64,000 bases of DNA from Octopus vulgaris (Eukaryota), in contig OX597823.1 in assembly GCA_951406725.2 (NCBI GenBank), positions 68,448,001-68,512,000 of the forward strand, read 5' to 3'. A model generated the notes under the pieces. It had not been told where the DNA came from. It was given only the letters and a program-made list of their open reading frames with translations, and made no database searches. The position numbers and the translations under genes were made by a program. Below, one piece after another: positions 2,871-48,939 of the stretch. Positions within the stretch are counted from its first letter, which is position 1, and every line of letters begins with the position of its first letter.

Positions 2871-3003
2871 TACTTCATAAGTAACATGAACAGAACATTT
2901 GTGCTATGATTTTGTATGCTCCTGCAGAAAAAAGCCTTTCAACTATTTACCCTGAGGCCATACATGTATGCATCAACAAGGATAACTGAGAATTCATTTG
3001 CTG

Positions 3004-3245
3004 CAGTAGTTCACAAATGGGGTCCATATGAGAATTTTTGTTATGAAAATTTATCTACAATAAATTTGTTATACATCTACAATACAAGAAATATTCTAAC
3101 AATTTTTTGCACACAGTTACTAATATTTAATCCTAAAAATAAATATAAATATGATTTTTTTAAAACATCAAATGGCTAGAGGGGTCCATCTGAGTAAAGT
3201 AGGAGTCAAAGGGGTCCATAGGTACAGAATGGTTGAGAAACATTG
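3004..3245. mobile_element. hAT-type MITE
   Basis: Degenerate TIRs cagtagttcacaaa...gttgagaaacattg (CAGTGGTTCTCAAC-type). 8-bp TSD atttgctg (2996-3003) / atttactg (3246-3253). Subterminal ggggtccat repeats. Confidence 0.75.
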
Positions 3246-3899
3246 ATTTACTGGGTCAATTCAGAAATCCACAATGATCTATTCAAGTTTAGGCCATCTT
3301 AGTATGCAACATCTCTTCAGAAATGAACAGACCACAACGTAAATAAGAAAGAACATTGAACCCACTTCTATTTCATTAGTCTACAGCTTATGAAAACTGA
3401 AATTGATAAAGAGCTAACTAAAATAAGACACAAAAGTTTTTATGCTTTTCCATATATCCAAAAGTTTTATATGTTTAAAAATGTATTACAGATATGTAAA
3501 AGAGTATTGAAATATTTCAACAATTTCAAATAAAAAAAAGACATCATTTCATGCAAGTGAATTCGGTTAAAGATAAATAACGATGTGAAATCACAAAAAC
3601 AATAGAACATTTAAGAAAATTGTTATATCAGATATAAGAAGTATTGTTGTATGAGATATTTAAAATACAAGGTTAGTTCTTAATTTGTGTAATATAAGAA
3701 CATGACATTTCTAAGATTTTAGTAGAGCCATTCACAAGAGAATGAATTATTCTAATATATTTCCTTTTTGCTTGCATTCCAGTGACTCTTGTTGATGCAG
3801 ATTATATTTAGTCTGTTTCAATTTTAGTGATTACATTTATATTATATTTGTTAGAGTAGCATTGAGTAATAGTTGTATCATAAAGTCAACCAAGAATGT

Positions 3900-5857
3900 A
3901 TTGTTCAAAATAAGTTTTAAGAGAGTTGGGAAGCTTAATGATGCTTCTTCAAGGATGAAGTAGATTCTATTTAGCATTAGCAAAACCATTAGCACATAGG
4001 AATACGATAAAAGAAAGTAGAAACTTAGTAATGAGTCTGACTGTTATAAACGATCACCAACTACAAGCAAGTTACCAGCAGCAAGAGCCAAAGTTGAGCA
4101 GTAGTAAAATATAAGATTATAAGGAATAAGCAATAGGCCTGTAAAAACTTGAAGAAGAGTTTCAAGACAGAAATGTGTATTTAACCAGGAAAGAAATAGA
4201 CAGTTGTAGTATTGGTAGTGTTCTAGGCAGCACAGAATAAAGAAACCTTAAGTCAGCATGACAGTGATACAGGTGTACATTATTTTATACTGACAATACA
4301 AATATGTATCACTTTGACAGGCAGCTGAAGATTGAGAACTGGAGATGAATTGAAGACAAGAATAAACTACAAAGTATTTATTGTCTATGGATGGTCTATA
4401 ATTTTTGCATGACACGTGTGCAATAACAAGGGAGCTCTTCTAAATTTTTTCTTCCATTCTCCAAATATATAACTGTGCTATTTGGTATAAATATGTGCAG
4501 AGCATTAGTGATAAAAAATAAACATAATTGAGGAACAAGGAAATGGTCTTTTGTGGGAAAATCAATACAAATACCTTGGGATACTTGGAAATTAATACAT
4601 TGATGAAGGAAAAGGCAAAAGCTGAGGTTGTAAATAAATATTTCAGACGACCTAGATTGGCTTCAAGGAAAAGAAAGTCATAGCAAGCAACATATTAGCT
4701 GTTGCATCACTGGGGCATAGAGAAGAAATACTAAGTAGTGTAGAGAGAGAGAGAGAGAAAAGAAGAGATGTCAGTTGAGTTAAGATAGCAGCCAGTAGCT
4801 AGATATGATTAGATAAGAAATGGACTTAAAGCTGAAAAAGAGAATTTGGGGTTAATATTGAAACATTTCAGAATATCCGAATATTAAAACAAGTTACAAA
4901 TTATTAGTGTGTTACCTCTCCTAAAACATATTGAAGAGGTAACATATTAAAAGAAATTGAAAGAATGAATAGAGAATCATTACATGGAGATGAAAATTAA
5001 TGGTTAATAGCAAAACTCATGGCAGAAGAAGCATTCAAGAAATAATCATGGAAACAACCTTCAACCCAAGACTGAAACTATGAATAATCATCACAGGAGC
5101 AAACGCAAACTATGTTAAATTCCACAAATAACTGTCCTATAGATATATGTTATATAGTGGTAAATATCAGTGTAATGAAGTGGCCATTAAGAAGTGTTAG
5201 AATTAATAATTAGGACACTAATAGAGATTAAGAACACCTGAAAAACAAGTTAGAACTGATGTGATTTTATACTGTAATCTGGAATTGACAAAATATCCAG
5301 AAAAAAGACAAAACAATACCTTTGTTTTTTGGGGGAGGGGGCAGGAATATTTTGTTAATTCCAGATGATGTTATAAAATAAGCTAATGATGGATACTATC
5401 CATCATGAACAATGAAGCAGGGAGACAACAAGCTGTGAAAATAAATAAATGATGATTACTGGATTTTTGTGAGATTTCTCCATAGAGATTGATAATTCTA
5501 CTGAAGGAATATCAAATATGAATGTGGAGGACAGAAAAAAAGAAATAATGTAAGATAACAGATTTCAAAATACCATATGATTGTGGGGTGGATGTGAAGG
5601 AAATGGAGAAACAACTGGATCTAACTTAGCCAAAGAACTGAAGAGATTCCAGAACACAACTGTGTAAATTGTTCCTGTGATAAATGGTGCTCTTGGAACA
5701 ACACCCAAACTGCTACCTGTAGGAAGCTGAAGGATATTGGAATAGAGACACATACAGTTGACCTGCAAAACTGGACTAGCCTTACTCTGCAAGTATTGTA
5801 ACAAAGATTCTTGAGATTTGAAGTGGCTTGTAACTAAATCAGAAGATGACATCTCTA
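3900..5857 (+). mobile_element. R4/Dong-like RLE non-LTR retrotransposon, copy 1 (very decayed, internally deleted)
   Basis: Remnants of LxMDxL (RT, ~4380), KYLGIL (~4570) and C-terminal IVPVINGALGTTP...LQK...KIL (~5670-5815), followed by a TAA/TGA tail. Start is uncertain. Confidence 0.65.
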
Positions 5858-5932
5858 ATAATAATTATGATGATAATGATGAGGATGATGAAGATGAGGA
5901 CAATGACGACAACAATAATAATGATAACAATG
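5856..5932 (+). repeat. (TAA)/(TGA)/(CAA) microsatellite tail
   Basis: taataataattatgatgataatgatgaggatgatg...aacaataataatgataac. Confidence 0.9.
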
Positions 5933-6145
5933 ATTTCAGATTGTGACACAAGGCCAGCAAGTTCAGAGGAGGGGATGAGTTAATTACATCGACCCCAGTA
6001 CTCAACTGGTACTTATTTTATCGACCCTGAAAGGATGAAAGGCAAAGTCAACCTCAGCAACATTTGAACTCATAATGTAAAGACGGACAAAATGCTGCAA
6101 AGCATTTTGCCCAGCATGCTAATGATTCAGCCAGTTCACTGCCTA
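5931..6145 (-). mobile_element. tRNA-derived SINE, family B (central domain Nin/Deu-like)
   Basis: Reverse complement: ggcagtgaactggctgaatcattag..gagttcaaat..gactttgcctttcatcctttcagggtcgataaaataagtaccag. Homologous to 24100-24312 and inserted in a TAA tract. Confidence 0.85.
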
Positions 6146-6419
6146 AATAATAATAATGATAATAAGAATGATGGTGATGATGATGATGATGGTGGTGAAG
6201 ACAGTGACGTTGCTGGCTATCTCTGTCTCACTTCAGAATAGTACTAGGTATTTGAACATTCATATATCATTTTCATCTTTTTTGGCCCTTACATGCTGTA
6301 ACCTTGATTTATTCCATCCCGAGCCTTTTTAAATGAAGAAAATTTACTTTAGTATTAAAAAACTTTTCTTGAGATACATGTGTCCCATTAGGAGCGAAGG
6401 GGTTAATGAAACCAGAACT

Positions 6420-8663
6420 GTTAATAGGGAAGGTATTGTACACAACAGGCAAGGAGCATCTGATCAAGCTCTGGTGCTTATAATCAAGCCACTGATCAGA
6501 ACTAGAATTGAAGTCAAAAGAGCAGAGAAAAGAAAATGAAATAAGAAAAAGATGTAAACAAGATTGTGATGGAATGTTTGCTGAGAAGTGAGCCAAATAA
6601 AGGAGGTTTCGTGAAATGAATGAAGAGAATATTGGATGAAAAGATAGTTTTTCTAGCTTCCACCCAATGATTGAGAGATCAGGTAAAGGGAATTTGCGTA
6701 AATGATTGGATTACAGGATTAGAGGTTGAAGAAATTCAAAGAAGAATAAAAAATGAACACAAAGGGTGTGAAACAGTGGCAGAAAGTGGCAATGAAGGGG
6801 TAAGAGATGAAGAAAAGGAAAAAGAAGGAAATAACTATATTGCTGAGAATGCTGATGAAGTAAATAGTGAAGATGATTTAGCTGGGCAAGTTGCACAAGA
6901 CTTGAATGTTGCATAAGACTTGAACGAAGAAGAGAAGGAGATTCTAAAAATGCTGTAAGACAAAATGTGTGGCGTAAACAATGAAGTGCCACAAAATGTA
7001 TGGACAGAGGAAAAGTAAGGAAAGCTACAGGCAAAGTAAATGGTGTTTTGAACTTGATTAAAACAAATAACATTGGTGAAACAAAGCAGTTAATAATAGC
7101 TACTGGTAATGTTATAGCTGACATGATAAGATATAAGTCAAAGACTGTTGAAGAAAACAAAGGGAAGGAAAAGAAAGAACTAAACTGGAGGAAGAGAATA
7201 CGAATGAAGCTGGAAAAGACATGGAAAGAACTGGGGAAACTGAATTGGATAATGAAAGAACTCAAGGATGAGATAGAACATTGAATGGACTGTACAGGTT
7301 ACAAGAAAGGGGAAAACAAACTGTACATGAAGGTCACAAAGAGTGACAATGTTAAAGACCAAATCGAAGTGGTATGATGTTACATGCGAAAGTTTTGAGC
7401 AAAATAGATTGTTTCAATTAAATAGTAGGTATCTTTTTTGAGGAAATAGAAGAGGAACAATATCAGGAACTGATTTCTGATGTGGAAAAAGCAATGCATT
7501 CCGGGGAGAACTTTGGAACAGGCCAGAAATACAAAAAGAAATTTCAGAGTGGCTGACAGAAGTGGAGAGGCATCTTGCAACTGTACCAAGACAAAAAGAT
7601 ATCAGAATTGAACCGTATTCAGTGAGACTGAAGTTAAAAAATAAATTGGAAGGGTCCAGGCTCAGATGGAGCACAACATTATTGGCTGAAGAATTTTACA
7701 TAGTTGTACACCTGGATGAATGCTTGCAGTAGGGTCTTGACTCTACCTGGATGACAAGAGGATGAACGTTGGTTATGTCTCAAGAAGTACTTGAAAGGTA
7801 AATTGGTATCAAATATTCAACCTATAACCTGTTTACCATTTATATAGAAGCTTATGACTGGTATCTTGGTGGAAAAGTTATATAATCATGTAGAAAATAA
7901 CAATCTACATCAAGCAGAACAGAAAGGATGCAGGAAGCAAAGCAGGGCAATAAAAGACTATTTTTAGTTGATAAAATGATAATTAGAAATTGTAGATGCA
8001 GAATGATGGGATTGAATGTAGCATAGTTGGATTATTAAAAAGTGCATGACATGGTACCACACAGTCAGATACATAAAACAATGAGCATGTTTGGAGTGAC
8101 AGAAAATATGGAGAAAAGGATTAATGAACGTATGAAACATTGGAATACTGAATTGGTTGGAGGAAAATAAAGACTTGGGAAAGTGAACATCACAATTGGT
8201 ACATTTCAAGGTGACAGCTTATCTCCATTACTATCTTTGTTTGCATGATACCACTTAGTTTGATATTATGAAAAGTTAAAATACCTTACAGTTTGGGAAA
8301 AGGATATGATCAGATAAATCACCTTTTTATGGTTGATATAAAGCTTTATGTGAAAAATGAGAAGCAGCTTGAAAGTCTTGTACATATTGTTTGCATTTTC
8401 TTAAATGATGTAGGTATGGAATATGGGACCAAAAAGTGTGCTATATCGATAATGAAATGAGGAAGATTTGAAGGAAGCCAGGAAATTGAAATGCCAACTG
8501 GGCAAACAGTGAAAGCTGTTGAGAAAGGATGGTGGAATATGTATTTGGGTATAGTGGAGGCAGATGAAATAAAACATGAAGAGATGAAGCAACTTACCAG
8601 TAGAGAGCACACAAGGAGAGTGATAAAAATATTACAATCAAAGCTGAATTCAAAAAATGTTAT
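6420..8663 (+). mobile_element. R4/Dong-like retrotransposon copy 2, 5' part (N-terminal domain plus RT), near full-length pseudogene
   Basis: KIVMEC..RSEP, QxLRDQ...WITGLEVEEIQR, TNNIGETKQLI, WRKRI, PITCLPFI*KLMTGI, EQKGCRK, QGDSLSPLL (~8207), INHL-FMVDIKLY (~8315), YLGIVEAD and KILQSKLNSKN; many stops and frameshifts. Confidence 0.9.
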
Positions 8664-11165
8664 TGTTGTAATCCTCTATTGTACTGATATAATGCCCACT
8701 TCGGTATAGCAGTTAGTTAGACAAGTCAGAACATGACTATCTATCGACCAACTACTTGACTGACATCCTTGACTTCCTACATCACAGTATTTATAATGAC
8801 TATCACATACCACTCGTCACATGTGAGGGATGTCCCATTATTACTATTATCCCCATAACCTCTCCACTTTTAAGTTTTTCTTTTTTCTTACAGAGTGTAA
8901 TTTTATTTCTTTTAGTAGCAATAATCTTTACTCCACTCCACCTTCATTTGTTGAGTTTTTTTTTTCCGTACAGTTACACATTTAATATTCTTTTTGTTTG
9001 GCATCTGCTTATGCATTTGCTTATGCATCTGGGTTGAATTATTTGTAATGGTATCGATACTTGAAAAGTATCATATAACCGTTCCATTGGTTCTTCCATT
9101 CTCTTGGTTTTGCTCTCAACGAATCTTCTTTTTAGCTGATTCACATGTCTCTTGTATACCCCTTTTCTTCCTTTTATGAAATATTTTCCCTATACATTTG
9201 GTAATCAGGTAATCATGCCATCTTCCCAACTTTGTTTTCCATTCTTATATGCCTTAACAGTGGAGGCGCAATGGCCCAGTGGTTAGGGCAGCAGACTCGC
9301 GGTCGTAGGATCGCGGTTTCGATTCCCAGACCGGGCGTTGTGAGTGTTTATTGAGCGAAAACACCTAAAGCTCCACGAGGCTCCGGCAGGGATGGTGGTG
9401 ATCCCTGCTGTACTCTTTCACCACAACTTTCTCTCACTCTTACTTCCTGTTTCTGTTGTACCTGTATTTCAAAGGGCCGGCCTTGTCACTCTCTGTGTCA
9501 CGCTGAATATCCCTGAGAACTACGTTAAGGGTACACATGTCTGTGGAGTGCTCAGCCACTTACACGTTAATTTCACGAGCAGGCTGTTCCGTTGATCGGA
9601 TCAACCGGAACCCTCATCGTCGTAACCAACGGAGTGCTTCTTCCAAAAATCCCAAATGCCTTAACAAATATGTTTACAGCAATTTTGTAAAATTTTGCCC
9701 TATTATCCATTGCAAATTTTCTTTCCTTACCAGGTAGTAATTCGTCGAAGACTGATTTTATTTTCCTCACAGACATTAGCTCTACTGGTGACATACTTAT
9801 TGGTGTATTTGGATTTGGAGTCACACACTATACTCTTAAGAATTATTCTAGAGCTACCTCATCCATGACTTCCTTATTCGACTTTCTTAGGGCTCTCTTA
9901 AACGTATCGACAAAGCATTCTGCTTGTCTGTTAGATCTGGGATGGTATGATGCCATAGTTACATGTTCTGCAGTGAACATCTTATGAAACTTTTTAAACT
10001 TGAAAGACACAAATTGCATTCCATTGTCAGACACTATCACGCCTGGGATGTCAAATCTCACAAACAGCTCATGTAGAAAATTTGTTGCAGTTGAGGAGGT
10101 CGGTTTTTTAGACTAGCAAATTTCTGGCTAATTAAAGAACCTATCAGCTACCACTAAGTAGTATGAACTATTTAAGTGACCAGTAGAATTGATGTGTAAT
10201 CTCAACCATGGCACATCTACTTTGTATAATCAGTAATTTTGCCACTAGTGTACATCTCCTGCAGCCTTTCACTAAATTTTTGATTTTGCTATCCATTTTT
10301 GGCCAGTACATGTAGCTATGCATTAAAACTTTCATCCTCGAAATACCAGGATGTCCAACATGAAGTTCCCTCAACATTTTCTTTTGCAATGTTTCAGGTA
10401 CTACTACATTTTGTGTATACATCAGTATACCATCACAAATTGAGTATAGGTTCATATCTTGGTTTTGTTTCACACAAATCCTATTCCTATTTACTTCTCC
10501 TGTCCATAGTATTCTTTTCATTTTTGCTATGAATTTGTCCTTTTCCACATTTCGTTTTATGTTTTCAAGGATCAGTGATAATTCATGTACCACATTCCAC
10601 ATTACATTTTTTATTTCTTCTTCTGATCTTAAAGCTGTGCTTATTATATCATCAAATGGCTTTCAGAGTTTCGGTATCAGTTTGGACAACCCATCCGCAT
10701 GGCCTAGTTTTTTTTTATGGTAAATATTCCATTTTGTAATCATAATTCAACAATGTAATGCCCCATCACTGTAATGTATTCACTGTGTGTGTTGATATTC
10801 CTTTTTTAAAGCTGTAACTGAGTTTGCAACATAATCTGGTGAGAACATCCTTTCAGCATTTTTTGACAAATTATTATTCTTTAATTGCAGCATTTGTTGC
10901 TGTAATAGTAGTAGTAGTTGTTGTTTTTTCAGCTGTTGTTGTTGCTGTTTTTGCAACTTAAGCAAACTGGCCAATAATTCTTCCATGGTTTTACGATTTT
11001 GTATACTATAAAATTCGCACAAAAAACTTTGTGAGTTTTGTAACTCCTTGTGAATTTGTTTAATCCTTGTGAGTTTGTTAATTCCTTATTGCCACAGTTG
11101 TAATCCTCTGTCAGACTGTTATAGCACCCACAACCAACTACCAACCACAACCAATTAGTAAGTTG
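8664..11165 (-). mobile_element. Ty3/Gypsy LTR retrotransposon, internally deleted, nested in R4 copy 2
   Basis: Integrase core VSDNG..YHPRSN.QAE.FV.TFKRAL (9843-10061); HHCC finger LH.GHPGI.RMK...YWP...C..C (10168-10602); RNase H end WG..LLNYDY.MEY....GHADGLS (~10680-10775); Gln-rich gag start (10820-10990). 3' LTR ~8664-8858 ends ...gaggattacaaca and is preceded by PPT aaaagtggagagg. 5' LTR remnant from ~11097 is followed by PBS-like tggcaataagg. Confidence 0.9.
9260..9655 (+). mobile_element. Young CpG-rich tRNA-derived SINE (family D) inside the Gypsy element
   Basis: A box tggcccagtgg and B box ggtttcgattccc; perfect 11-bp TSD atgccttaaca at 9249-9259 and 9656-9666. Confidence 0.9.
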
Positions 11166-11169
11166 CTTA

Positions 11170-11958
11170 CTAATAGGTGATCAAGAGTGGAAAGGGCAAA
11201 AAAGAAACGCAATGAGAACATGTCAAACATATTGAAGAGAAACATTTGCACAGTCAGTTTTGAAAAGCCACTAAGGATAAGCTAGCTTGAAAAAGAGATA
11301 GTTAAAAAGGAAGCAGAGCTCTATTATGGTATGTCAAGATCAAACACTGCAAACAAGCAGTTTGGTAAAATATGTGTATGGGAAAAGGTATTGGCAAAAG
11401 TAGAACTTGTAGAATTTGGGATGAAACAGTGGCACGCAAGTTGGTCCAGGGAGAATATACAAAATGGAAATATGTTCAAGATTTTGTGGGATTTTCTCAT
11501 TGAAATAGATAAGAGGAGGAAACATAACAAGCCTGCACATGGATTGGTCTATTATGTCCCTTTGTTACTAAGAATGTAAAGAAAGCAGATGAAAAGTTGA
11601 AAATCTACAATCCCTTAAAATTTGAAATTGTGAGGATTTAGAACATGAAAGTGTAAAGATTGTACCAGTGATAATTTTTTGCATTAGAGACTGTAAGTAA
11701 TAAAATAGAAAAATGGATAAAGCAGGGTGGAATGGAATGTCTTGCAGAGCTTCTACAGAAAGTTTGACCCTTAGGAACAGGGAATATTATCAGAAGGGTT
11801 TTGAGTGCTTGCTGTCTAATTGAAATTATGTGGATGCCTAAGGTTACAGATAGTAACCTGCTACTCACATAAATTCTACAAGGAATACGAACAGTCCTGA
11901 GTCAAGAAGAAGAACATGATTAAAATATTAATAATATTATTAATAATAATAATAATAT
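11170..11958 (+). mobile_element. R4/Dong-like 3' part (RLE domain, 3' UTR, TAA tail); probable continuation of copy 2
   Basis: EKHLHSQF, CQDQTLQT, FKILWDFLIEIDKRRKHNKP, YNPLKFEI and IIRRVL, then taataataataataat at ~11930-11956. Confidence 0.85.
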
Positions 11959-12650
11959 AAAATGTGCTACGAGGGTGATGAGATGAGGAAAGCTTGTCAG
12001 AAGGACAGTATGTCGAGTGGTGAAATGATGAAGGCTATTGAAACTCAGTCCAGTTACAAAATATCTGGGAATACTTGAGGTAAATGGAATTGCATACAAT
12101 AATATGAAATAAAAGACAAAGAAAGAGTACCTGTGGTGAGTGAGAAAAATATTGACTTCAAAGTTGAATGCCAGAAACAATTTTGGCAATAAACTTATGC
12201 ACAGTTGCAGTAGTTTGGTATGGTGCTGGAATCCTGAAACGGACAAAGGAAGAGCTAAAGAAGTTGGACAGGAAACAAGAAAGCTCCTAATGATGCATGG
12301 AGTTCAACATCCACATGTAGACACTGACCAGCTATACCTGAAGAGAACAAATGGAGGAAGAGGACTGATAAGTGTGGAAAATTGTGTATGTATCGAACTT
12401 GAGAGCTTAATGAGATATCTAGCCCAAAGTAAGAAAACCTTGCTAGTGTCATTTAGGAATGAGGGAGTATTGAAAGCAGAGGAAAAAAAAGGAAAAACAA
12501 AGGAAGTACAAAAAGGACATGCAGAAACATTATGTAACAAGGGACTACACCATCAATTTCATGTGGCTATAACAGAAATTGCTGGAAAACTTAGGTAGGA
12601 TTGGCTGAAAGCAGTAAAACAAAAATTGAAAGAATTTGACAATTTTATCA
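11959..12650 (+). mobile_element. R4/Dong-like copy 3 (post-RT fragment)
   Basis: KCAT, KYLGILE and ORF 12140 RKILTSKLNARN...TRKLLMMHG.QHP..DTD.LYLKR..GGRGLISVE...LHHQF. Confidence 0.85.
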
Positions 12651-12739
12651 TGTATGTGCCACTGTAGTTGTAGCAGAAGTAGTAATCTAAGAGGTTAGTC
12701 ACATCAGGTCAACCCAGAACAGACAAATACAATAAAGTT

Positions 12740-14297
12740 AAAGATGAATAGAAGATCACATCAAGAGATTGAGACAGGAAGCTAGTCAACAACAATTTCT
12801 CAAAGAAAGTTACACTAATTAAAACACTAAAAAAGAAAGACAATGTGTAAAGGGAAAAGAGGGAATGAATGTTGTAATTGAAGAACTGCAGTAAAGCATT
12901 GCTGTAATGTAACTAAAATAAAATGACACGAGAGTGAAGGACATAAGTTCCAGCAGAACTTCAAAATATAAAAAAAAAAAGTTTGAGAAGCTGAAGGAAG
13001 TAGAAAGATAGAATGATAAAGTGTCAGATGTATAGAGAAGTGAAAATGTTTAGAGTGATATATGAAATAAGAAAGGTGTCCATAATACAGAGGTTTAGGT
13101 GATTCGAAAAGCAGAAAATGAATTACGATTAGAACAACAGGTCAAACTGAAAACCACTCTTGTCAAAACTGAAAAAGAATTATATACCTTTGTTAAATCA
13201 GTGAGAGTCTTTAATAACAGCATCAGAATAAAGTCTGATATTTGTAAGTGTGGGTATAAGAAGAAGGCATGAGAACTGGATGGTATAAGGAATGGAATGA
13301 TGAAAAGCAAAGATTAAGGAGAACTATTTCTAAAGGATAAGGAGGTTATTAAAATTCAAAAGCTAATTATATAAATAACATCAAACTCATAAACCTAAGA
13401 GTAGTATTCATTATCAGATGTTATAAAGGAATAATAATCAAATGGGGAACGGAAGCTCTTCAAAATATAATAAAGTAAAAAAAAAAAGGGAGTTGACAAC
13501 AATCTATAGAGCCTTATACTCACATGCAGAGGTCAATAGCCTATTGTTACAACAGAAAAGTGGTTAGATACCTAACGCTATTTATGTAGCTTGATCTCAA
13601 GTAATTAAACTCCTGCAGAATGACAATTTAATACTGAATGGAAAAAAATATAATAATAATGCAAATTATGCTCTGAGAGGATGAGGGAAAGCATAACAAT
13701 GTCACTAGATGGTACACTAGGTATTATTTAAAAGTTTTGATTGGAAAAGGTGAGAAACAGTATGAACATGATCCAGAAAGTGTGGTGGAAAATAATAGCA
13801 AGTCAAAAATATTTTGGGACTTCATGATCCAATGTGGTCATGGAATTGAACATTGGAAACCCAATACTGTACTTGTAAACAAGGGAGAAAAATTGTACCT
13901 GATCATAGACATTGAGAGACCTGGTGATAGTGGGAATTGTCAAACAAAGAAAAATGACAAGATATGTATCTCTTGAGTGAAATCAAAATCTGTAGTCAAT
14001 ATAAAAAGTAAAAGGTATATATTGCACCAATAATTGCTGGTACCTTAAGTACAGTGAGCAAAGAAACTGAAAAGTGGTTGGAAAAGATAGGAATAAAAAT
14101 TAAAATAGAGCACATCCAGAAAACAGCATTACTTGACAGTGCAAAGAGTCTCTGCACAGTTCTTGAGAATTGTAGAAAGCATTCCAACATAGTTTATGGG
14201 AAGAAAATGAGTGGTCCATTAATGACGCCTCCAGCAACAAACTTAGTATATCAGATACAATACGACTAATAATGATGCTTTCTGATTTAGTTACAAG
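12740..14297 (+). mobile_element. R4/Dong-like copy 4 (heavily deleted: N-terminal piece plus RLE)
   Basis: RIEDHIKRLRQE and VVIEELQ, then ORF 13737 YEHDPESVVEN..KIFWDF.IQC.H.IEH.KP...IIDI..PGD and ORF 14054 IEHIQKTALLDSA; short aataatgatg tail. Confidence 0.8.
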
Positions 14298-14480
14298 GTC
14301 AGTCATATTGTGAGGCAGAGTGTAGTTTTTATCATCAACTCTAGTACTTGACAGGTACTTTATTTTATTGACCCTGGAAGAATGATGAAAATTTGCCTTG
14401 ACAGGATTTGAACACAGAAAGTAAAGAGCCAGAAGAAATACCGTAAAGCATTATGTTCAATGTTTCAACAAGACTACTCT
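14298..14480 (-). mobile_element. Family B SINE, degenerate
   Basis: acaaggtcag...ggtactttattttattgaccctggaagaatga...ggatttgaacacagaa matches 5931-6145. Confidence 0.7.
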
Positions 14481-14575
14481 AATACTGATGATTATGATGA
14501 GATGATGAAATTACTACTACAACATGTAACAACAACAACAATGGTAGTAGTAATAATAATAATAATAATAATAAT
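14480..14575 (+). repeat. Compound (TGA)/(CAA)/(TAA) microsatellite
   Basis: Ends in about eight taa units directly before R4 copy 5. Confidence 0.9.
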
Positions 14576-15899
14576 GTTTAGGGATTTGGAGCTGGTTTAC
14601 ATTCTACACTGAGAAATGAAAGTCAAGGTCAGCAAAGCATATAAAAAAAGGGCGAAGCTGGTGATGAAATCCAACCTGAATGCCAAAAATTTGATTACCG
14701 CAATGAATATCTGGGCAGTTGTGGTGGTCAGATGTAGTATGTCCATCCTCAAATGGACTAAGGAGGAAATATCAACACTGAATAGAAGGATGAGAGAGTT
14801 GATGACACGGCATGGGGCACTACACCCTAAAGCAAATGTAAATAGACTATATGAAAAGAAAGAATAGTGGCAGAGATCTAATTGTATAAGGAGAGAAAGA
14901 ACACTTGGCGAGTATTTGATAAATGGTGATGAAGACCTGCTGCAATATGCCACGAAAGATATGGGTGTAAATGCTTATGAAATGATGGGTAAGGAAGAGT
15001 TTAACCAAAGAACTGAGAAGAGAAAAGAAGACCTTCTTGAAATGAGAATGCATGGACAGTTTGAACGGAACACACAGAACATGGAGGAAAATAGAGCATC
15101 ATGGACATGGCTTGAGTGAGGTGATTTGAAGCATACTGCTGAAAGCCTGATCATTGCTGCACAAGACATGGCTCTCGCTACCAAGTCAATGAAGTATAAC
15201 ATCTATAACACTTCTGACACCCAGAAATGCAGACCTTGTGGAAAGAGTGTGGAAAATATGTGACCCACTTGGTAAATGGATGTAAGAGCCATGCACAAAA
15301 GGAATACAAGTACCACCACGATAAAATGTGTGTGTGTATCTTCATTGGCTCTTTTGCCGTAAATACCAATATGATGTATCAGAGAACTGGTATGAGCATG
15401 TACCAAGTAAAGTTATGCAGGAGGATGGAAAAGTAATGATGCTCTGGGACTATTATTTCCAGACAGATCATGTAATCGAACACCGTCGGCTGGGTATTAT
15501 GTTGAATAAGAGAGACAAATACTGTCATAGATCATTGATGTAGCCATACCAAATTACATGAATGTTGTAAGTAAAGAAGTTGAAAATATCACCAAGTACT
15601 CCGAATTGGAAGTGGAAATGGCAAGACTGTATGCAATGTGAGAGGGTAATGTGAAAGTGATACCAGTGGTGATTGGAGCATTGGGCTCAATCCCATTGAA
15701 ATTTCAAGACATCTTAAGGCAACTGGAAATCCCATGCAACATTGATATCTTGCAAAAAGAAAGCCTTACTGGGCATAGCGCACATCTTAAGCAAAGTATT
15801 ATCTGTCTGAGGTCCTTGTTGTGACTTGACAGATGACTAAAGACTCCAGTGCATTTTTACCTATACTGTATTACGAAGGAATAATCATAATAATAATAA
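14576..15899 (+). mobile_element. R4/Dong-like copy 5 (5'-truncated; CCHC knuckle plus RLE)
   Basis: KSNLNAKNLITAMNIWAV..W...E...HGALHPKANVNRLY; MHGQF; ESLIIAAQD.AL.T; CRPCGK..E...H...GC; LWDY.FQTDHVIEHRR; IIDVAIP; VIPVVIGALG; stop ~15810; tail ataatcataataataataa. Confidence 0.92.
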
Positions 15900-16372
15900 A
15901 GCTCAGAAAATATAAAGATCTACAAATCGAAATCAAAAAGATGTGGCATCTCAAAATGGTTACAATACCAGTGATTGTAGGAGTACTTGGAATGATCAAT
16001 AAAGGAACTGAAAATTATTTAAGAATGATCTCTGGCTTACTATCCATGCAGGAAGTGCAGAAGATTGTCTTAACTGGTACATCACACATATTGAAAAGTG
16101 CATTGTTGCTGTGAATTTTCTTTCCTTTTGTCCACATTTATTTGTTTAGTTTTCCATTTTTTATTTTTTCGTTTTCCTCTCTGTCTTCCCCTTTTTCTCT
16201 ATCACATGACTTTGTAAATGAACAATCTGATGTGTTTATTTTGATGACTACCAATGTATACAGTACATTTCTCTAGGTGTCAGGAAGACACTTGGCAAGA
16301 AATGGAAACTGAATTGAAACAAGATGCTAATGATGATGATGATGATAATAATAATGATTATGATGATGATGA
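15900..16372 (+). mobile_element. R4/Dong-like copy 6 (short 3' end with long 3' UTR)
   Basis: KLRKYKDLQIEIKKMW...TIPVIVGVLG...VQKIVLTGTSHIL begins directly after the copy-5 TAA tail; TGA/TAA tail at 16325-16372. Confidence 0.88.
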
Positions 16373-16374
16373 CT

Positions 16375-18028
16375 ATATCACCAGTGAAAAAAAGGTATAT
16401 TTTAAGGTGACTGCCTGCCTGCACTGACTTTTGTACTATGCATGGTACCTCTAACAATGATTCTAAGGTTGAGTATGAGTTCAAGGGTTACCCACAAAAG
16501 GTTAACTACTTCTTATTCATGGACGACCTCAAGCTTTGTATTAAGGAGGATTCTCAGATAAGTTCCTTCATTGGTTCAGTGTTTATGTTCAGTGCTGACA
16601 TCAGATTGCTGGTCAGATTGAAAAAGTGCAGTGTGTTAGTCTTGAACAGCAGCAAAATTAAATGCACTGTTGAATTGGTGATGCCATTAGGGAAGGTTAT
16701 GAAGCATATAGAAGTGGCATACAGAAGTACTTGAGGATGTTGGAAATAGATGAAGTAATAGAGGAAATGATGGAATACTAGTGCAGACTGAGGCTTTTCC
16801 TCAAGTCAAAATAGAATGGATGGAATAATACTGAAGCTAACAACACATGGGCTGTTTTGCTCCTTAGATATGGGGCAGGGGTAATTGCATGGATAGTAGA
16901 AGAACAAAACAGCTTAGACTGAAGGACAAGAAAGCAATTGACAAGATATGGGGTATTTCATCCAAAGAATAAGTGACAGATAGACTGTATGTACCAAGAA
17001 TAAGAGAAGAGGACCAACTAGGTGCAAGCACCACATTAGAGCAGAAGAAAACAGCATGGTATGGTACAAAAATGCTATGGAACTACTATTGTTGAAAGTA
17101 AGAATGTTAGGCCTGTGCTACTTTGAAGATTGCGAAGATAAAACACAGTACAAGCATTTATTTGAGGATGGATGAAATTGAAAATAGATGGATAGAGAAA
17201 AGAATGTATGAAAAATTCCAGAGATGTTGAAGATAGAACAGGCAAAGAAAAATGTGGTTATGGTTTAAAGTGATTAAAAACTGGAAATTTTTAAAGTCAC
17301 TTTTACAGGTTAATGCTTGCTCTAGAGAAAGTATTAAGAACCAATTACATCAAACACAGAAAATAACACAGAGCAGGAAGCAACAAGTATAGAATTTGTG
17401 GAAAATTATCAGTCAATATACATAGCTAGTTCATAAAGAAGATAATATGTGACAAGACAATATAGCAAGGATAGTCCATTGGACACTTTGCAACAAGTAT
17501 GGACTTGACAGAACAGAAAATTGGTATGAACATAAACCTGAAGACATTAGAGAAAGTGATAATACAAAGATCCTGTGGGAATTTATGATTCGGTGTGACC
17601 ATGAGAGAGAGTAAAGGAAACTGGATATAGTGATAACTAAGAAAGAAAGCAAACAGTGATGGATAATAGATGTAGCATACCCAGCTGACAACAATGTATG
17701 TAATAAAAAAGAAAAAATTTAATAGATAATGACAGGTTAGCTTGGGAGGTTAAGCAATGTGGTTGTTGAAAACTGTGATAAAAATACCAATAACTGTCAG
17801 AGCCTAACAAGCAATAAATAAAGATCTTGAGAAGTATATTGAACAAATATGGGTTGCAATAAGGGTGGAGTATTTGCAGAAAATAACATTGTTTGGAACA
17901 GCTTTAATACTTCAGAGAATGCTTGAAAAATAAAGGGTACTGTCTCATTTCACTGGTAGTAAATGGCTGATACTCTAATACACCTCCAGAGTTAGAAAGC
18001 GTGCAAAAAATAATGATAATAAATGATA
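16375..18028 (+). mobile_element. R4/Dong-like copy 7 (RT to 3' end)
   Basis: GIF.GD.L; LFMDDLKL (RT catalytic motif ~16516); NTWAV..LRYGAG; WYEHKPE; KILWEFMI.CDH; ends ~17932 with 3' UTR and an aataatgataat tail. Confidence 0.9.
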
Positions 18029-18029
18029 T

Positions 18030-18420
18030 GAACATGAAAGATAGGGCATCAATGAGAACAATAAATATAAGCTCCTGTGGGATTTTACAAATTAATGTGA
18101 CTCCCTAATCGATGTTCAGAGAACAGACATTGTTGTGGTAGATAAAGAAAAATCAAACCAAGATCACAGATATTGCCATATCAGGGGTTGTATGCATAGA
18201 TGGCAAAGGGCTGGAAAATAAATGCAGAATACTAAAAGATGAAATTTCAAGAATGTGAGGATTTTGAGATAGGTACTTGGACATTAAATAACTTAATATC
18301 CAGTGATACTTAACATCTAGGTACCATGTCTTAAAGACCTTTGGCAACAGATTTCTGTCTGCTCTCACAGAATTAACCAGTGCAAGGAAGATTGAGAGCT
18401 CTGAGAAGTGAAATATAATA
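18030..18420 (+). mobile_element. R4/Dong-like copy 8 (RLE fragment)
   Basis: NENNKYKLLWDF...RTDIVVVDKE...TDIAISG...LKDEISR. Confidence 0.8.
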
Positions 18421-20298
18421 ACAAGACCTGGATATACAGGAGGACATTGTCATCCCATTGGAAGATATTCAAGCCAGAGTTGGTAAGATGAAAAGTTGGA
18501 AGGCAGACAGAATGGAACTAGTTCAGGGTTTCTGGCTCAAAGGTTTGATGAATTTACATCTTAAACTACAAAACCTCCTGAAAAGCTGTATACACCAAGG
18601 AATTGTACCAGAATGAATTGTTGATTCAGAAGGACCCACTCAATGGTGCTCTGACCAGTAACTATTGTCCAATTGCTTGTTTACCTATGATGTGGAAGCT
18701 TCTAACTTGGATAATAGAAAAGAAACTGTATGGTCATCTTGAAAGAAATGAACAGCTAGCAGATGAACAGAAAGGGATTACAAGGAATAAAGGATCAGTT
18801 GCTGGTTGATAAGGCAATTCTTAGGAACCATCAAAGAAGGTTGACAAGCATATCAATGGCGAGGACTGACTATAAGAATGCATATGATATGGTTCCTTGT
18901 GGATTCTGAAATTCCCAGAGATGATCAGGGCAGTGAAAAATTTGATTTATTTGCTTAAAATTAGTATGAGAAACTAGAAGACAGTTTTTAATGCTTGTGG
19001 AAGAAGAATTGGAGAAGTTGACACCATGAGGGGAATCTTTCAAGGTGACTCAGTATCACCTGAGATGTTTGTTGTTTCTATATTATTGCACTCCATGGTT
19101 TTGAGAAATATGGGTGCTGGTCACAAACTGCAGAAAAACATGAAACTAATTAGTCACCTGATATTCAGGAATGATCTTAAACTTTATGGAGCTAGCAGAG
19201 GTCAATTAGGTTCCCTTATTCAATCTGTACGAATTTTCTCACAAGACATCCAGTTGGCATTTGGTATAGAGAAATGCACTATTATTGAACTGAGGAGAGG
19301 GCAAAAGTAGAGATCAAAATGATGAGTGGATAAGAGAAGTGAACAGAGAGGGTTACATCTTGGTGTTTTACAACTAGGCCAAATGTTGAACACCAAGATA
19401 AAGGAGGTAATTTCTGAATATATCAGCAGATTTAAAAAGCTATGCCAGTCTTAATGGAGGGAGCCTGATTAAAGGCATCAGCGTATGATTTATAGGTATG
19501 ATATGTTACTACACAGGAGTTGTGAAATGGACAAAGGAGGAACTTGTCAACATGGATAGTAAGAGTAGGAACGTAATGGCTATGCATGGATGTCTTTATA
19601 CAAGAAGTAATATAGCAAGGCTTTACTTACTTAGGAAGGAAGGTGGAACAGGACTTGTTGGAATAGAGGTAAATGGTGAGAAGGAGGTAAGCCCTTGCAT
19701 GACTATCTGAGGAATATTGATGAAAGAATGTTGCAGGCTGTACTGAGTGAGAAGGTGATCAGTGACAATGGTGAGACCCTCCAGAATTACAATATGAGAA
19801 CTAATAGAGAAAAGACCATCAACTGGAAAGAGAAAGTCATTCACCATGAATTTTTCCAACAAACATCAGAGGAAGTTGTTAAAGAATCCTGGAGATGGTT
19901 AAGACATGTTTTTTTAAAAAGGAGACTGGACTGACTTTTCTGCCAAGTATGGATTGGCAAAGTAAAGATAATGTAGAATGTAATGATACAACGAGATCAT
20001 GAAATTGAACATTGAAAGCTGGATATAGAAATGAATAAAGAGAAAAAATACTTGCTTAACCATAGATATTGCATATCCAGTTGACGAGAATGTATTGGAA
20101 AGAGAAGAGAAGTAGGCTAGATATGATGATTTGAAGTGGGTCATAAGTGTTGTCAATGATGAAGGTGAGTATTGACACTGGAGGGATTTGAACTTAGAAA
20201 GAAGTGAATTGGAAGAAATAGCACAAAACAGTTTTTCCACTGTTCTAGCTATTCTACCAATCTAAACAATAATAATAAATATTACTACTAATAATAAA
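18421..20298 (+). mobile_element. R4/Dong-like copy 9 (RT-containing)
   Basis: MKSWKA....VQGFWLK; SNYCPIACLPMMWKLLT; EQKG; GIFQGDSVSP; ISHLIF.NDLKLYG; FGIEKC; W.KEEL...D...ARLYL.RKEGG.GL; IDIAYP; tail aataataataaat at ~20268. Confidence 0.9.
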
Positions 20299-20319
20299 CA
20301 TGTTTTCATTTATTTGGCT

Positions 20320-20490
20320 CCATGGCTGATTTATAACACTAGCACAAAGACATATATTTCATGTGAATGTACACAACTGACTGCAGTATTTGATTATTAT
20401 TTTATGAATCTCAGAAGGATGACTATGGAACAATTTGAAATAAGAACATAATGACATGTAACTAAATACAAAACATTTTGTCTGTTTGCC
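20320..20490 (-). mobile_element. Very degenerate family B SINE
   Basis: Weak match (gcacaaag...cagtatttg..tattttatgaatctcagaaggatga...atttgaa...acattttgtc), flanked by TAA tracts. Confidence 0.4.
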
Positions 20491-20559
20491 ATCATCTTAA
20501 TAATAATGCTGATGTTGATAATAACAGTGTTATTATTAACTTTAAGGATTTCAAATATC

Positions 20560-21735
20560 ACGAAAAGCTAAAAAAATAATGCAATGCATGAATACACTTG
20601 ATGTTCCAAATATAAGATACAGTTCTAATATTACTAACTAGAAATTAAGTAGATTAATAAAACTTGCTAGAAAAGATAGCATTCAATTTATACCACCTCA
20701 AAAAGACATGAAAATATTTTATTTAATGTGATCAGTGGTGGGTGTGTTCTGAAATCATAAAGCTATTCTAAAATATTTATCATAAGATTACAAATATAAC
20801 TAATAAAGAAAGAAGGAAAACTAAATTTGAAAAATATAAACTTGAACAAAACAAAGAACTCTCTTCTATCATTAGATAAACCAAAAGGTGCACGATAGAT
20901 GATGAAGCAACAGATGAGGGTGAGAAGAATAGGGAATGAGGACAAAACATTTGAAAAGTGCAGATTACAAAATACCATACTCTAACATTGTTAGAAAAGC
21001 TTTTATATGAACAGAGAAATCCAGAACTCAAAACTCATCTCAGCACAAAATCAAAACTGGCCCATTAGAAAATGCTAAAAATCTACAAGGAAGCATACTA
21101 TGGAATGTAACTGCATGTCATATGACAGCTGTAAAATATAGGCTTTCATGCAGTCTAGTTTTATATAAAACTAAAAGTTGATAGAGGTTGAGATTAAATG
21201 TACTAGAAACTATGCCACAATTTTAGAATTACGACATGTAAATTCTAAAACATTCATATCTCACAAGATCTACAAAAATAAAACAGTTACCATATCCTGA
21301 AACATTCTAGTTAATAGACAGTGAGGTAAGAAAAATTATTGCGAAAGAAAATAGGAGCAAAACTGTCATTCACTGGCTAACAAATATATTTGTGATAAAA
21401 AGGCAAAAACTATTCAAATATAAAACATGGAGAAATAGCACTATTCAAAATATATCGGAAAACAAGTTACAACCCCACATAATGATAAATGCTTTGGGGA
21501 TGATAAAAAGAAAAGGCAGATAAATATTTGTCCCAAATCCCCATAACCAATACACATATACAACACAGAAAATTGTATTCTTAGGCACTGCTCCTATATT
21601 ATGAAGAGTTGTCTCAATGTATTATATATGACAAAAAGTACTCAACAAGAACCAAAGATGACATGTATTGAAGATTTGTACAGTTATGCTGTGATTGTTT
21701 GCAATGACAAGATTATTTGAATGAAATAATAAATA
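20560..21735 (+). mobile_element. R4/Dong-like copy 10 (very decayed 3' half)
   Basis: MNTLDVP.IRYS.NI.N*KL (cf. INTLAVPVxRYSF.IINW), INALGMIK and QKIVFLGTAPIL*RV (~21567-21615); short aataataaata tail. Confidence 0.65.
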
Positions 21736-22639
21736 CACTGTAGGAACCTGAGAAATTTGTTACTCTAAAACATAAGTTAACCAGTATATAGTAGCAAAAG
21801 CTAAAGGTTTCTAATAATGAGATAGCCCATTTGTTAATGATAGTAATTTTTTCAATGGCAATAATTATATTAATTATTCATAAACAGTATTTTGTATAAA
21901 ATGATCACTTTATGCATATCCATTCTTAAAACTTAAAAGAAGTAATGAGCACCACACTAAAACAAATTTATTTCATTTCAAGAATTGATAACAGTTTTAA
22001 TGATTTCTTCTTTAAAATCATAACTGTTATTATAATTGATTAGAAACCACAGATATAATATTGTCCATATGATAAGATTATTAAACAGGAAAAAAACTCC
22101 ATCTAACTAAAGAAAACATTATGATGAGTTGTCAAAAGAAATTGATGTTTTAATGTCATTGATACACCCTTGCAGAAATATTGAACTTACATTTTATATG
22201 GAAGTATGCACTAAATTTTACGTTTGATAAGCTGTCTAAATGATGAACTTCCTGTCATGCTCTCAAACTTAATAGAGCTTCCTGATTAAGTCTCCATATG
22301 CCATCAAATGCAATCTTACAAATCTTACGAAAGAGTAAAGCAATACGACAAAGGCAATAAATGTTAACCAAAAATTTACATAGTGCATAACTTTTGAGGA
22401 TTCATTTGATGAAGCAATATTTAAATGCCGTGACAAAGAGGCTCTCAAATTATTGACACAACAAGTGCAGTACTAATATGGTTAAGAGGAGAAATATCAC
22501 AAAAAGTAATTGAGATTTTTATTTTTTGAAAAACAGTGATATTGGTTGGTTGGTTGGTTGGCAATAAGAGCAATATTAATTTGATTTCAAACTGAAATGA
22601 AGAAACGATTGATGCTAAAGTACAGCAATATTAAAATGG

Positions 22640-22706
22640 TGTATATATATATATACACACACACATATATATTATATATACATACATTTATATATATACA
22701 TATATG

Positions 22707-22745
<39 letters not shown>

Positions 22746-22764
22746 TTATATATATACATATATG

Positions 22765-22800
<36 letters not shown>

Positions 22801-22875
22801 CATACATATATCTATATACATATATGTATATATGTATGAATATATATATATATGTATGAATGTATATATATATAA
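22640..22875. repeat. (AT)n-rich compound microsatellite
   Basis: Long TA/CA/TG dinucleotide run; source of the YIYI-type spurious ORFs. Confidence 0.95.
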
Positions 22876-23699
22876 TTCAGAATAAATGGATGATGCAGAG
22901 TAAATATTAAGAAATATGAGGTGAAATTTACAAAGAAGTCCAACTTGATATGTGTGCACATATTTTCATGCTTCTTTGCATGCTTGATTTTGATTGCATA
23001 TAGATGTGATTTTATGGATGTATATAACAGCACAAAACACTTTTTTCACAGAAATCATGATCATGATGATAAAAATGAGATTAAATTTTATATATATTTT
23101 ATGATAGATAAAATTATATTTTGTTGTATGTATTTTGTGATAAGTAAAAAGAATTAGTGAATGATAAGGTATTTTGTTAAACACTTGTATTAAAAATCAC
23201 ATTCACTATTTTGGAATACAGAATAATTTACAAAAATCAAATTCATAAAAAGTTCAAATGATAATTTCATCATTCTTAAATCTCATAAATATTCTAAGAA
23301 TTCTAGAGATGTATCAAGAAAATGACCATGCAAAATCACCTATTTTATTTGTTACATAACACAGTTTTGATATTTCATACGTTACTTTATTGTTGAAACC
23401 TTCGATAGCTCTTTTTATCATTTGAAGATGCTCATAACAATACTTGATTTATATACATAGAATTTTATAGAGAATATACATATATTTATTTATTTCATAT
23501 ACACTATTTACATACTATATATTCAAAATATATATACCATGCATTCTGCTATATTATATTTGCTTACACATACACAATTGCTAACTAAACTAATACCCAT
23601 AATTTGTATGCTGCAAATGATTATGAGGATACAATAAAATATGCTTAAATTCATCATTTCAATGTTAATCAATTACCTAAAGAACAAAATGAACAGCAG

Positions 23700-30119: not shown

Positions 30120-31155
30120 ATAACAGCAAGATCCTCCTACAAAATGTTCTGCATCTTCTTGAGAGATCACTGCGGTAATGATTTTACACTGCTATCGTGG
30201 GCAAGTGCTAAATTTTGCTGCACAGCTGAAAGTCCTCTGTGCAGTAATATATTGTGTGCATAGTGCTTTACAACCAATAGTCACTGAGCTTCAGCATCAT
30301 TTTCATCAAATCAGTCTCTGTGTCTGGCAGTAGCTTATCCCAGCGTTTCAGCAGTACATTGAAGAACCTGGTCTCAAAAACCTTCCCATACTGTAGTATT
30401 TTCAATGCTAGACAAGCGAGTCTGAAGTGCTTTCCTCAACACAGCATCATATATCTTGTGGACATTCAGATGCCGAGGAATGCCAACAGGCCCTCTTCTC
30501 TCTTTCACTCTAATCCTCATTGCAACTTTGCTCGCACCAGACTGTAGTCTGTCCAACATTCCAATCCATGGAAGGACTTAACATTGCAAATGTCATAGAT
30601 GTCACACTTGCAGATGAAGACATAATCCAGCAAGAGCCAAACTTTAGATCTTGGATGCATCCACATTGTTGTGCAATCACCTTTGTGCATAAAATGAGTG
30701 CTTGCGATGTAAAGTTGACGTTCATTGCAAAGCTCCAGGAGCATGAGACCATTGCTATTCATTTTCCCTACACCAAAATGTCCTAGAGACTTCCATGTTT
30801 ACCAGTCTGTTCCAACCCTGGCATTGAAATCCCCCAGTAGAATGACTATATCAGAATTGGGGATTTTCCTAAGTATGGCTCTCAGATGCATATAAAAAAT
30901 AGTTTTATCTTCATCAGAATTAGTCAAAGAAGGTGCATAGACACTTATTAGAGCTGCAAACCACCCACCTTTCAGGTGCAATCGTAAAGTCGTTAGACAT
31001 TTATTTATAAGAACAGGAAGCTCCTCCAATTTCTTAAGGATATCTGATTGAACTGCAAAGCCAACAGCAGACAGTCTGCACTCCTTCAGCCTCCCCTTCC
31101 AAAAAAGGTGTATCCACCTCCTACTTCCTCAAGCTGACCATCACCTTCTATACAA
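30120..31155 (-). mobile_element. RTE-clade (BovB-like) LINE fragment, APE endonuclease
   Basis: LISVYAPSL...K..FY..L...ILLGDFNARVG; NSNGL.LLELC...TxMHPRSK.W.LLDY...CWTD..LVR. Confidence 0.92.
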
Positions 31156-31986: not shown

Positions 31987-32264
31987 GATCACCATTTTAC
32001 AGCTTGCTCTTGTAAGTTAATATGAACTAGAAAGCTTTCAAAGAATCTCTCCACTCATTGTCAGCTGGCAGAGAAACAGATACTTTTGCTATTGTCTGTG
32101 CATTTATTTCATTTTATTGTGCTACTATCAACAGAGATGTTATCATCAGAGAGATAACAAAAAAAAAAAAAAAATGAGTCCTCTTTAACCTATCTTTAAA
32201 ATATGTATACAAATACACATTCGTTCTCTTATACATGGTTACATACACCTGTAAAAAGTGCAGA

Positions 32265-32688
32265 GAGTCTAATGCTTGTGTACAAAGTGCAATATTGTAC
32301 AGTAGCAATATATGGGCATAAACTGAAGAGGAATGCAAAAGCTGAAAAGAAAAAGCATGCATGCACTGCTGAATGTGTAATGTTAGTAGATATGAACAGC
32401 AAAGCACAAATAAACAGAGAGCACAAGAGATATAGCTGCACTGGTACAGATGTGCAATGTATACAGAGAATAACAGAAGGGGAAAAAGGTTTCTAGGAAT
32501 CCAAGAGGAAGGAAGCTGCTGATGAGGAGAACTTGAGAAGACATGGGAAGAGGTGGTGAAAGCCAATCTCAGGAGGTTGAACTTCATCAAAGAGTTAACA
32601 AGGAATTGCAACAAGTGGTGTGATGCTGTGGTGGAGGAAACCCAGCCAACCCAAGCAAAAATGGGGAAAAGGATGTAGAATGATTATA
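32265..32688 (+). mobile_element. RTE LINE 3' fragment
   Basis: NACVQSAILYSS..W (cf. YDACV..AMLHGSETW) and KTWEEVV..; 3' end ccaacccaagcaaaaatgg...gatgtagaatga resembles the tail of the 39301 and 62067 copies. Confidence 0.75.
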
Positions 32689-34720: not shown

Positions 34721-34879
34721 TGGGGTCATTTCCCTGAAGTGAGCTCACTGAATAAGACTTGGTGTGGGAACTTTGATTCTTCCAGTCTTGCTACATGCCC
34801 TAGCCATCAAAGATGGTGTTCCATTATCAGTGATTTGATACATTGGCTGTTGGCTCTTTCCAGGATTTTCTAGTTGGTC

Positions 34880-48893: not shown

Positions 48894-48939
48894 TTAACAA
48901 TAATGATACTGATGATGATGGCGATGATGATGATGGTTC

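Follow-up and report, generated by a model that had tools for sequence, protein, structure and literature searches.

Organization of the Locus

The stretch of DNA analyzed here, hereafter the window, comprises 64,000 nt of the Octopus vulgaris genome (GenBank assembly GCA_951406725.2, contig OX597823.1, positions 68,448,001 to 68,512,000, forward strand), and positions below are counted from its first letter. At 4457–21720, tblastn, profile, and frameshift-tolerant searches identified a chain of 10 decayed copies of long interspersed nuclear elements (LINEs) of the restriction-like endonuclease (RLE) type, all on the plus strand, which are here designated D1 to D10 and likely belong to the Dong/R4 clade. 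An original prediction, made from the letters alone, had described about ten reverse transcriptase (RT) and endonuclease fragments at 3900–21735, all on the plus strand; their number and strand were borne out, as all Dong-like fragments in that interval (4457–21619) were on the plus strand and none on the minus strand, both in profile searches and in tblastn with 15 full-length relatives (those of at least 1000 amino acids among 120 listed relatives, of 196 returned in a protein search with an RT fragment from the window). The proposed start at 3900 was not, since profile alignment gave no Dong signal from 3900 to about 4450. A strict pipeline (matches of at least 18 bits, competition against other LINE proteins, and merging of collinear pieces) counted eight copies in 6425–19943, and frameshift-tolerant profile alignment with shuffled controls added the two most decayed ones, D1 and D10. 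A further candidate, at 20567–20725, scored 30 bits against a shuffle maximum of 28 and was left out of the count.

As background we used 25 arbitrarily placed 40-kb stretches (1 Mb) of the same genome (2.8 Gb in 227 contigs). Dong density in this background was 34 per Mb, such that about 0.6 copies would be expected per 18 kb, compared to the 10 found in about 17 kb here; a reversed-sequence control gave no false Dong matches at ≥18 bits in 1 Mb. Several junctions of the chain are crossed by contigs of four public runs (three studies) at approximately 98–100% identity (e.g., 11966–14372, 17486–20483, and 17497–18706), so that the chain represents real DNA rather than an assembly artefact; no single contig of these runs spans the whole chain. 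None of the runs listed for the locus is recorded as RNA; run X1 showed even coverage over the chain, but may be DNA. In runs X9–X11 (also about 98–100% identical here), no credible absence of a whole copy was found among the listed pieces and joints, which cover a minority of the joints; the similarity of these runs is too high for a comparison of stepwise growth across species.

The features of the chain, on the plus strand unless stated otherwise, follow one another as described here. D1 (4457..5855), the most decayed copy, retains the late RT region (profile positions 677–784 at 4457–4736; 43 bits), the C-terminal endonuclease (1018–1134 at 5473–5818; 61 bits; shuffles ≤23), and a 3′ untranslated region (UTR), and its 3′ 400 bp match 39 other genomic places at 67–78%. 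It is followed by a degenerate TAA/TGA tract (5856..5934), by a copy of SINE-A (5945..6142, minus strand), a very abundant short interspersed nuclear element (SINE; about 160 copies per Mb) that appears to run antiparallel to the Dong copies, as read from what we take to be A/B-box-like motifs on the minus strand, and by a second TAA/TGA tract (6146..6198). D2 is a near-full-length copy in two parts (6200..8673, N-terminus through RT, profile 9–768; 11180..11918, to profile 1133 plus 3′ UTR, 77 bits), split by a decayed Gypsy-like long terminal repeat (LTR) element on the minus strand (8668..11180, right boundary approximate). This element carries Pfam rve (E = 8e-6) and Integrase_H2C2 (E = 8e-15) matches; an end alignment showed that both of its ends begin with a common LTR-like start, and the left end has an identical start point in most of 39 other genomic matches. 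A tRNA-like SINE of very high paralogue depth (9262..9640) is inserted in it. Both halves of D2 are collinear with one other locus (L016), about 300 bp having been lost beside the Gypsy-like element.

A TAA tract (11919..11957) separates D2 from D3 (11958..12650; profile 689–922), which lacks a 3′ end, has no tract at its right junction, and shows 75% DNA identity over 436 bp to a lone plus-strand Dong copy at 47287–48432 of the window. D4 (12651..14266; 128 bits) is internally deleted (profile 219–406, 662–823, and 990–1133) and ends in a 3′ UTR and then a short tract, TAATAATGATG, which is followed by a second antiparallel SINE-A copy (14333..14455, minus strand) and by a mixed TGA/CAA/(TAA)8 tract (14486..14575) containing the longest pure TAA run of the chain. 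Next are D5 (14576..15879; 5′-truncated, profile 731–1129 plus 3′ UTR), a TAA tract (15880..15899), the short 3′ copy D6 (15899..16325), a TAA/TGA tract (16328..16372), D7 (16373..18007; 5′-truncated, profile 606–1133 with an FMDD motif, plus 3′ UTR), and a short TAA tract (18008..18025). D8 (18027..18255; profile 1000–1078; 50 bits vs. shuffles ≤23) lacks a 3′ end, with no tract at about 18300, and D9 (18422..20148; profile 395–922 and a collinear piece, 1012–1076) lacks a 3′ end as well. Two weak TAA tracts (20268 and 20497, in 20268..20535, strand unassigned) surround what may be a decayed SINE-A, recognised by visual inspection alone and negative by blastn. The last copy, D10 (21383..21720; profile 1056–1134 plus 3′ UTR; 38 bits vs. 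shuffles ≤17), is a very decayed 3′ copy. The roughly 850 bp ahead of D10 (20540–21380) are old sequence with no significant Dong signal, a 110-bp part of which weakly matches elsewhere in the genome.

Six of the nine junctions thus carry a clear TAA-type tract, one (D9/D10) a weak one, and two (D3/D4 at about 12650; D8/D9 at about 18300) none, in agreement with the original prediction that most junctions are such tracts. Among the eight junction positions that it had listed, 5856, 11930, 14550, 15880, 16325, and 18010 are TAA-type and 20268 is weak, while 21722 is not a tract (tract score 0). Its description of the region as unidirectional holds for all Dong copies, but not for the minus-strand Gypsy-like element or for the antiparallel SINEs in two tracts; these elements, together with the tRNA-like SINE, had been missed.

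Divergence among the Chain Members

Amino acid identity in the C-terminal (endonuclease) region ranges from 11 to 42% among the chain copies, and the longest blastn match between members (E ≤ 0.01) covers 82 bp at 72%. In a C-terminal tree of 84 of 185 fragments (≥55 aligned residues, about 90 columns, young anchor family described below thinned to five), which separates lineages but does not provide dates, each of the six chain C-termini included has its nearest relative outside the chain. Close-paralogue depth differs more than 100-fold, from the single-copy level at D1, D4, D9, and D10 to tens of thousands at D5, D6, and the 3′ end of D7. The low identity, weak blastn matches, and separate branches rule out tandem or segmental duplication of near-identical units, as had been anticipated in the proposal that the copies represent different subfamilies or ages. 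Template jumping is a property of R2-type RTs, and same-family doublets do occur, as two of the 44 same-strand copies close to young copies share ≥90% identity with the young family; nevertheless, it is extremely improbable that the chain arose through tandem duplication or through template jumping during a single reverse-transcription event, and for this locus the divergence of the members already refutes such an origin.

D6 is apparently the least decayed copy (81–86% DNA identity to its nearest fetched relatives). Because even D6 is only 84% identical at the protein level to the young family, and because the longest pure tract is (TAA)8, the site looks like a fossil, with no young copy and short tracts.

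Classification of the Elements

An intact relative (L120), with a single open reading frame (ORF) of 1076 amino acids, matched RVT_1 with E = 9e-30, and its Protein Data Bank matches were R2 proteins only (E = 4e-28); in the window, D7 matched RVT_1 with E = 4e-4, under the curated cut-off. The motifs C-x2-C, H, C, RHD, WDF, and KPD-D-K were read in L120, which we take to represent a CCHC knuckle followed by a PD-(D/E)xK endonuclease, and the window copies align to the L120-type C-terminal profile columns. Pfam scans of four long relatives showed no apurinic/apyrimidinic endonuclease (APE) family at E ≤ 1. No N-terminal zinc-finger family was found in the Pfam scans either, although the L120 frame starts at about profile position 112 and divergent fingers can escape such scans; N-terminal C2H2 zinc fingers are a feature of R2 and are not expected in the R4 clade, including Dong. 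Homologue searches returned no named Dong/R4 protein, and an ESM Atlas search returned unnamed cnidarian and mollusc clusters only. With an RT domain, CCHC and PD-(D/E)xK motifs, and no APE, the elements have the make-up of RLE-type non-LTR retrotransposons of the R2 group.

Their assignment to Dong/R4 is likely, considering the motifs and R2 relatives of L120, the targeting of TAA, and reports that Dong-R4 predominates among the RLE elements of octopus. In the excerpts of the papers considered here, Dong-R4 is described as abundant and recently active in octopus, with five families and 1129 recent insertions as compared to 13 for Hero and one for R2 (PMC13282606), Dong-R4 LINE families appear in octopus repeat annotation (PMC13282606, PMC8967140, PMC9115989), and R4 is presented as a mostly target-specific RLE clade (PMC4640811). 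An HDV-like (hepatitis delta virus-like) ribozyme has been described at the 5′ end of Bombyx mori Dong (excerpt of PMC3774820); an Rfam scan of 3000–23000 of the window, where the copies are decayed, found none, and returned only TA-repeat microRNA look-alikes.

TAA Tracts and Neighbours of Young Copies Genome-Wide

The 149 best non-self matches to the D6 C-terminus (of 48,207 first-look candidates) provided 60 anchors (rank 22 and alternate ranks from 31 to 147), and 10 kb around each was analyzed; the anchors represent one young family, related to D6. A TAA-type tract was present at 58 of the 60 3′ ends and at least 49 of the 60 5′ ends, as compared to 0.76% of random windows. Several of the 5′ misses were boundary errors, longer copies beginning at TAA further upstream. 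Pure (TAA)≥4 flanked both sides in 47 of the 60 copies, and the median tract measured 18.5 units 5′ and 10.5 units 3′, compared to 13 for background tracts. The longest young copies (L120, L064, L076, L098, and L101) contain up to about 1.3 kb of common upstream sequence with a degenerate TGA/TAA region, tandem units of about 400 bp, and differing start points, an arrangement suggestive of 5′ transduction or of an extended 5′ UTR.

Additional Dong copies flanking the anchors were on the same strand in 58 cases and on the opposite strand in 11. Of the 38 loci with such a copy, 34 had the nearest one on the same strand (p = 6e-7), which upholds the predicted same-orientation enrichment of adjacent copies genome-wide. 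A same-strand Dong within about 5 kb was found for 34 of the 60 young copies (about 14% expected). Same-strand density per 100 kb was 46.7 within 500 bp, 13.5 at 0.5–1.5 kb, and 4.2 beyond, while opposite-strand density was 1.2–3.3 at all distances (background 1.7 per strand); within 500 bp there were 28 same-strand and two opposite-strand neighbours, the former representing an approximately 27-fold excess over background. Among the 44 same-strand neighbours within 1.5 kb, 37 belonged to other families and five were 75–90% alike, in addition to the two doublets mentioned above. Background (TAA)≥5 tracts showed the same polarity: 29 of 98 had a Dong copy within 450 bp, 28 of them co-polar and one opposite. 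Shorter chains are common in this genome, and the locus is therefore one large instance of widespread behaviour rather than a special site; a second all-plus chain of about seven Dong copies of several families with TAA-type junctions is located 122 kb downstream (window-relative 143844–150912; about 68,591,750–68,599,030 of the same contig, L198:9750 to L199:7030).

Selection against one orientation within a host-gene intron, combined with low regional purifying selection, could also yield same-strand copies; background pairs more than 3 kb apart were on the same strand in four of six cases, and same-strand density stays about 2-fold high past 1.5 kb from the anchors, where such selection may add a weak long-range effect. 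However, same-strand density drops over the first 1.5 kb, from 46.7 to 4.2 per 100 kb. In addition, other LINE or Penelope-like pieces near the anchors showed no same-strand bias (seven same-strand, 16 opposite), and Dong matches outside both chains in 264 kb around the window were on either strand; a strand bias of a general kind therefore fails to account for the chain. No convincing host exon was found in the window ORF lists or in a repeat-masked ORF scan of the 264 kb (315 candidates, those of ≥60 amino acids inspected by eye; short exons would escape). We therefore consider selection within an intron highly unlikely, and the intron named in the original prediction is only a putative one.

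In 12 of the 13 upstream neighbours, the match extends to profile position 1100 or beyond and the copy ends just ahead of the shared tract; their C-terminus being retained, the 3′ end in front of the young copy is intact. This arrangement bears on a reading in which successive Dong insertions merely subdivided one long pre-existing TAA/TGA microsatellite, with targeting and polarity unchanged and no net renewal of the target. Such subdivision would fit the short, degenerate tracts of the chain and the location of young copies in long tracts (5′ plus 3′ medians of about 29 units vs. 13), as a preference for long tracts would also give. It sits poorly with the position of the upstream neighbours, and with the 3′ UTR of the young family, which in nearly all copies passes straight into TAA at one constant place, as a tail generated upon insertion would do; we thus regard subdivision as unlikely.

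Of 22 SINE-A copies within 300 bp of anchors, 20 had the orientation seen in the window, compared to 23 of 53 beyond 1.5 kb; the TAA tracts are thus common to Dong and an element of opposite polarity. Another SINE-like element in TAA tracts (48939–49191 of the window; L074, L117, and others) has one orientation relative to Dong (six of six within 300 bp of anchors), and its window copy follows the lone Dong copy at 47287–48432. Just past the 3′ TAA tract of several young copies (L063, L087, L097, L100, and L120) is a short repeat with CTGATGA...GAAAC, presumably a hammerhead-ribozyme-like core; it is frequently located within the TAA tracts, in both orientations (six vs. three within 300 bp). 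Outside the chain, the window contains decayed RTE-like LINE fragments on both strands (30500–31130, 32200–32650, 34750–35130, and 51380–51650), and inspection by eye suggested Mariner-like transposase fragments about 32 kb upstream of the window (L187) and, next to a five-member Dong chain elsewhere, a 514-amino-acid open frame (L096:1–1542) resembling a tyrosinase/hemocyanin-type host exon.

Probable Successive Insertion into TAA Tracts

The junction sequence, common polarity, local enrichment, and mixture of families were all observed directly. We consider it quite probable that the chain represents ten decayed same-strand LINE copies of different families, likely Dong/R4, which inserted successively, by target priming, into (TAA)n of a shared microsatellite in a fixed direction and left TAA on both sides. 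The endonuclease and RT would recognise the TAA/TTA target, which is asymmetric, in a single direction, such that all lineages would insert with one polarity; each insertion would split one tract into two, and previously hit sites would become likelier to be hit again. Both the nicking chemistry and the net creation of targets are inferred, the latter from tract lengths. Later deletions, the Gypsy insertion, and antiparallel SINEs would then have broken up the chain, and, with the degeneration of its tracts, the site likely stopped receiving copies. The earlier idea of a self-renewing polarised landing pad used by many lineages is supported, with corrections: the pad served antiparallel SINEs as well and received a minus-strand Gypsy-like insertion, it looks like a fossil that no longer renews itself, and the locus is not a special one.

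Several observations weigh against this explanation. No co-polar Dong or SINE-A adjoins 57 of the 98 background tracts, the 5′ tract is kept in 13 of 34 background copies and the 3′ tract in 13 of 21, and neighbours within 600 bp are more frequent downstream (20 of 60) than upstream (11 of 60). Tight chains in the 1-Mb background have at most three members and 25 of 29 chains are singletons, placing a chain of 10 in the far tail. An "other family" need not be older, and the order of insertion is thus only conjectural, and long flanking tracts could stem from slippage after insertion, or from the choice of tracts that were long beforehand, instead of from the creation of new target. The anchor test covers a single young family, and, within the chain, the two junctions without a tract, the weak one, and the missing 3′ ends of D3, D8, and D9 are attributed, by inference, to later deletion.

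On a broader reading, on which we are evenly divided, TAA tracts genome-wide would act as self-multiplying one-way landing pads, shared with an antiparallel SINE, where each Dong insertion doubles the local targets and a large share of the insertions of all lineages piles up into chains, which would be both a layered fossil record and self-made sinks. If so, chains could serve to order LINE families without a clock and could shape genome growth as sinks. The chains turn a known target preference into a testable rule of genome architecture, in which a major LINE class clusters in a polarised, rich-get-richer manner; this rule predicts where new insertions will land. Such clustering may contribute to the transposable element hotspots that are reported for octopus, without explanation, in the excerpted text of PMC13282606. 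Annotation tools that merge nearby same-strand matches will fuse separate insertions. No host function is implied for the chain locus.

Comparison with Known Systems

Tandem insertion at a regenerated target is familiar from SART/TRAS in telomeric repeats and from Alu in A-tails. Targeting of TAA by Dong, as stated in the original prediction, is published: Dong of B. mori, DongAg, and DongBg are described as TAA-microsatellite-targeting R4-clade elements (PMC3812793), and a B. mori Dong 5′ junction construct included seven TAA repeats (PMC3774820), both as given in excerpts. The chain is a genome-wide consequence of known targeting. As to the chains themselves, nesting is not mentioned in the main texts of the octopus annotation papers, and the main text of PMC13282606 mentions neither "orientation" nor "target"; no description of polarised multi-family Dong chains, in cephalopods or elsewhere, was found in the literature searched, which largely excluded subscription papers such as Kojima and Fujiwara 2004.

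Like Dong, DongAg, and DongBg, the octopus elements have TAA on both sides, and their intact relative has one ORF with RT, CCHC, and C-terminal PD-D motifs. Unlike these elements, they comprise many lineages that use common targets and build one-way chains of mixed families, up to 10 copies long; in addition, no fixed 5′ end was seen in the octopus young family, its longest copies carrying variable upstream sequence. A parallel to the mixture of families is provided by the transposons Dada-U1A and Dada-U1B, different families inserted in tandem, in the same direction, at one target in U1 genes (excerpt of PMC3706591). The octopus chains resemble this arrangement in that families are inserted in the same direction at one target, in tandem, with target sequence between them; they differ from it, and from SART/TRAS, in that their target is neither a gene nor a telomere but a dispersed microsatellite, and in that the chains are long, old, and spread over the genome.

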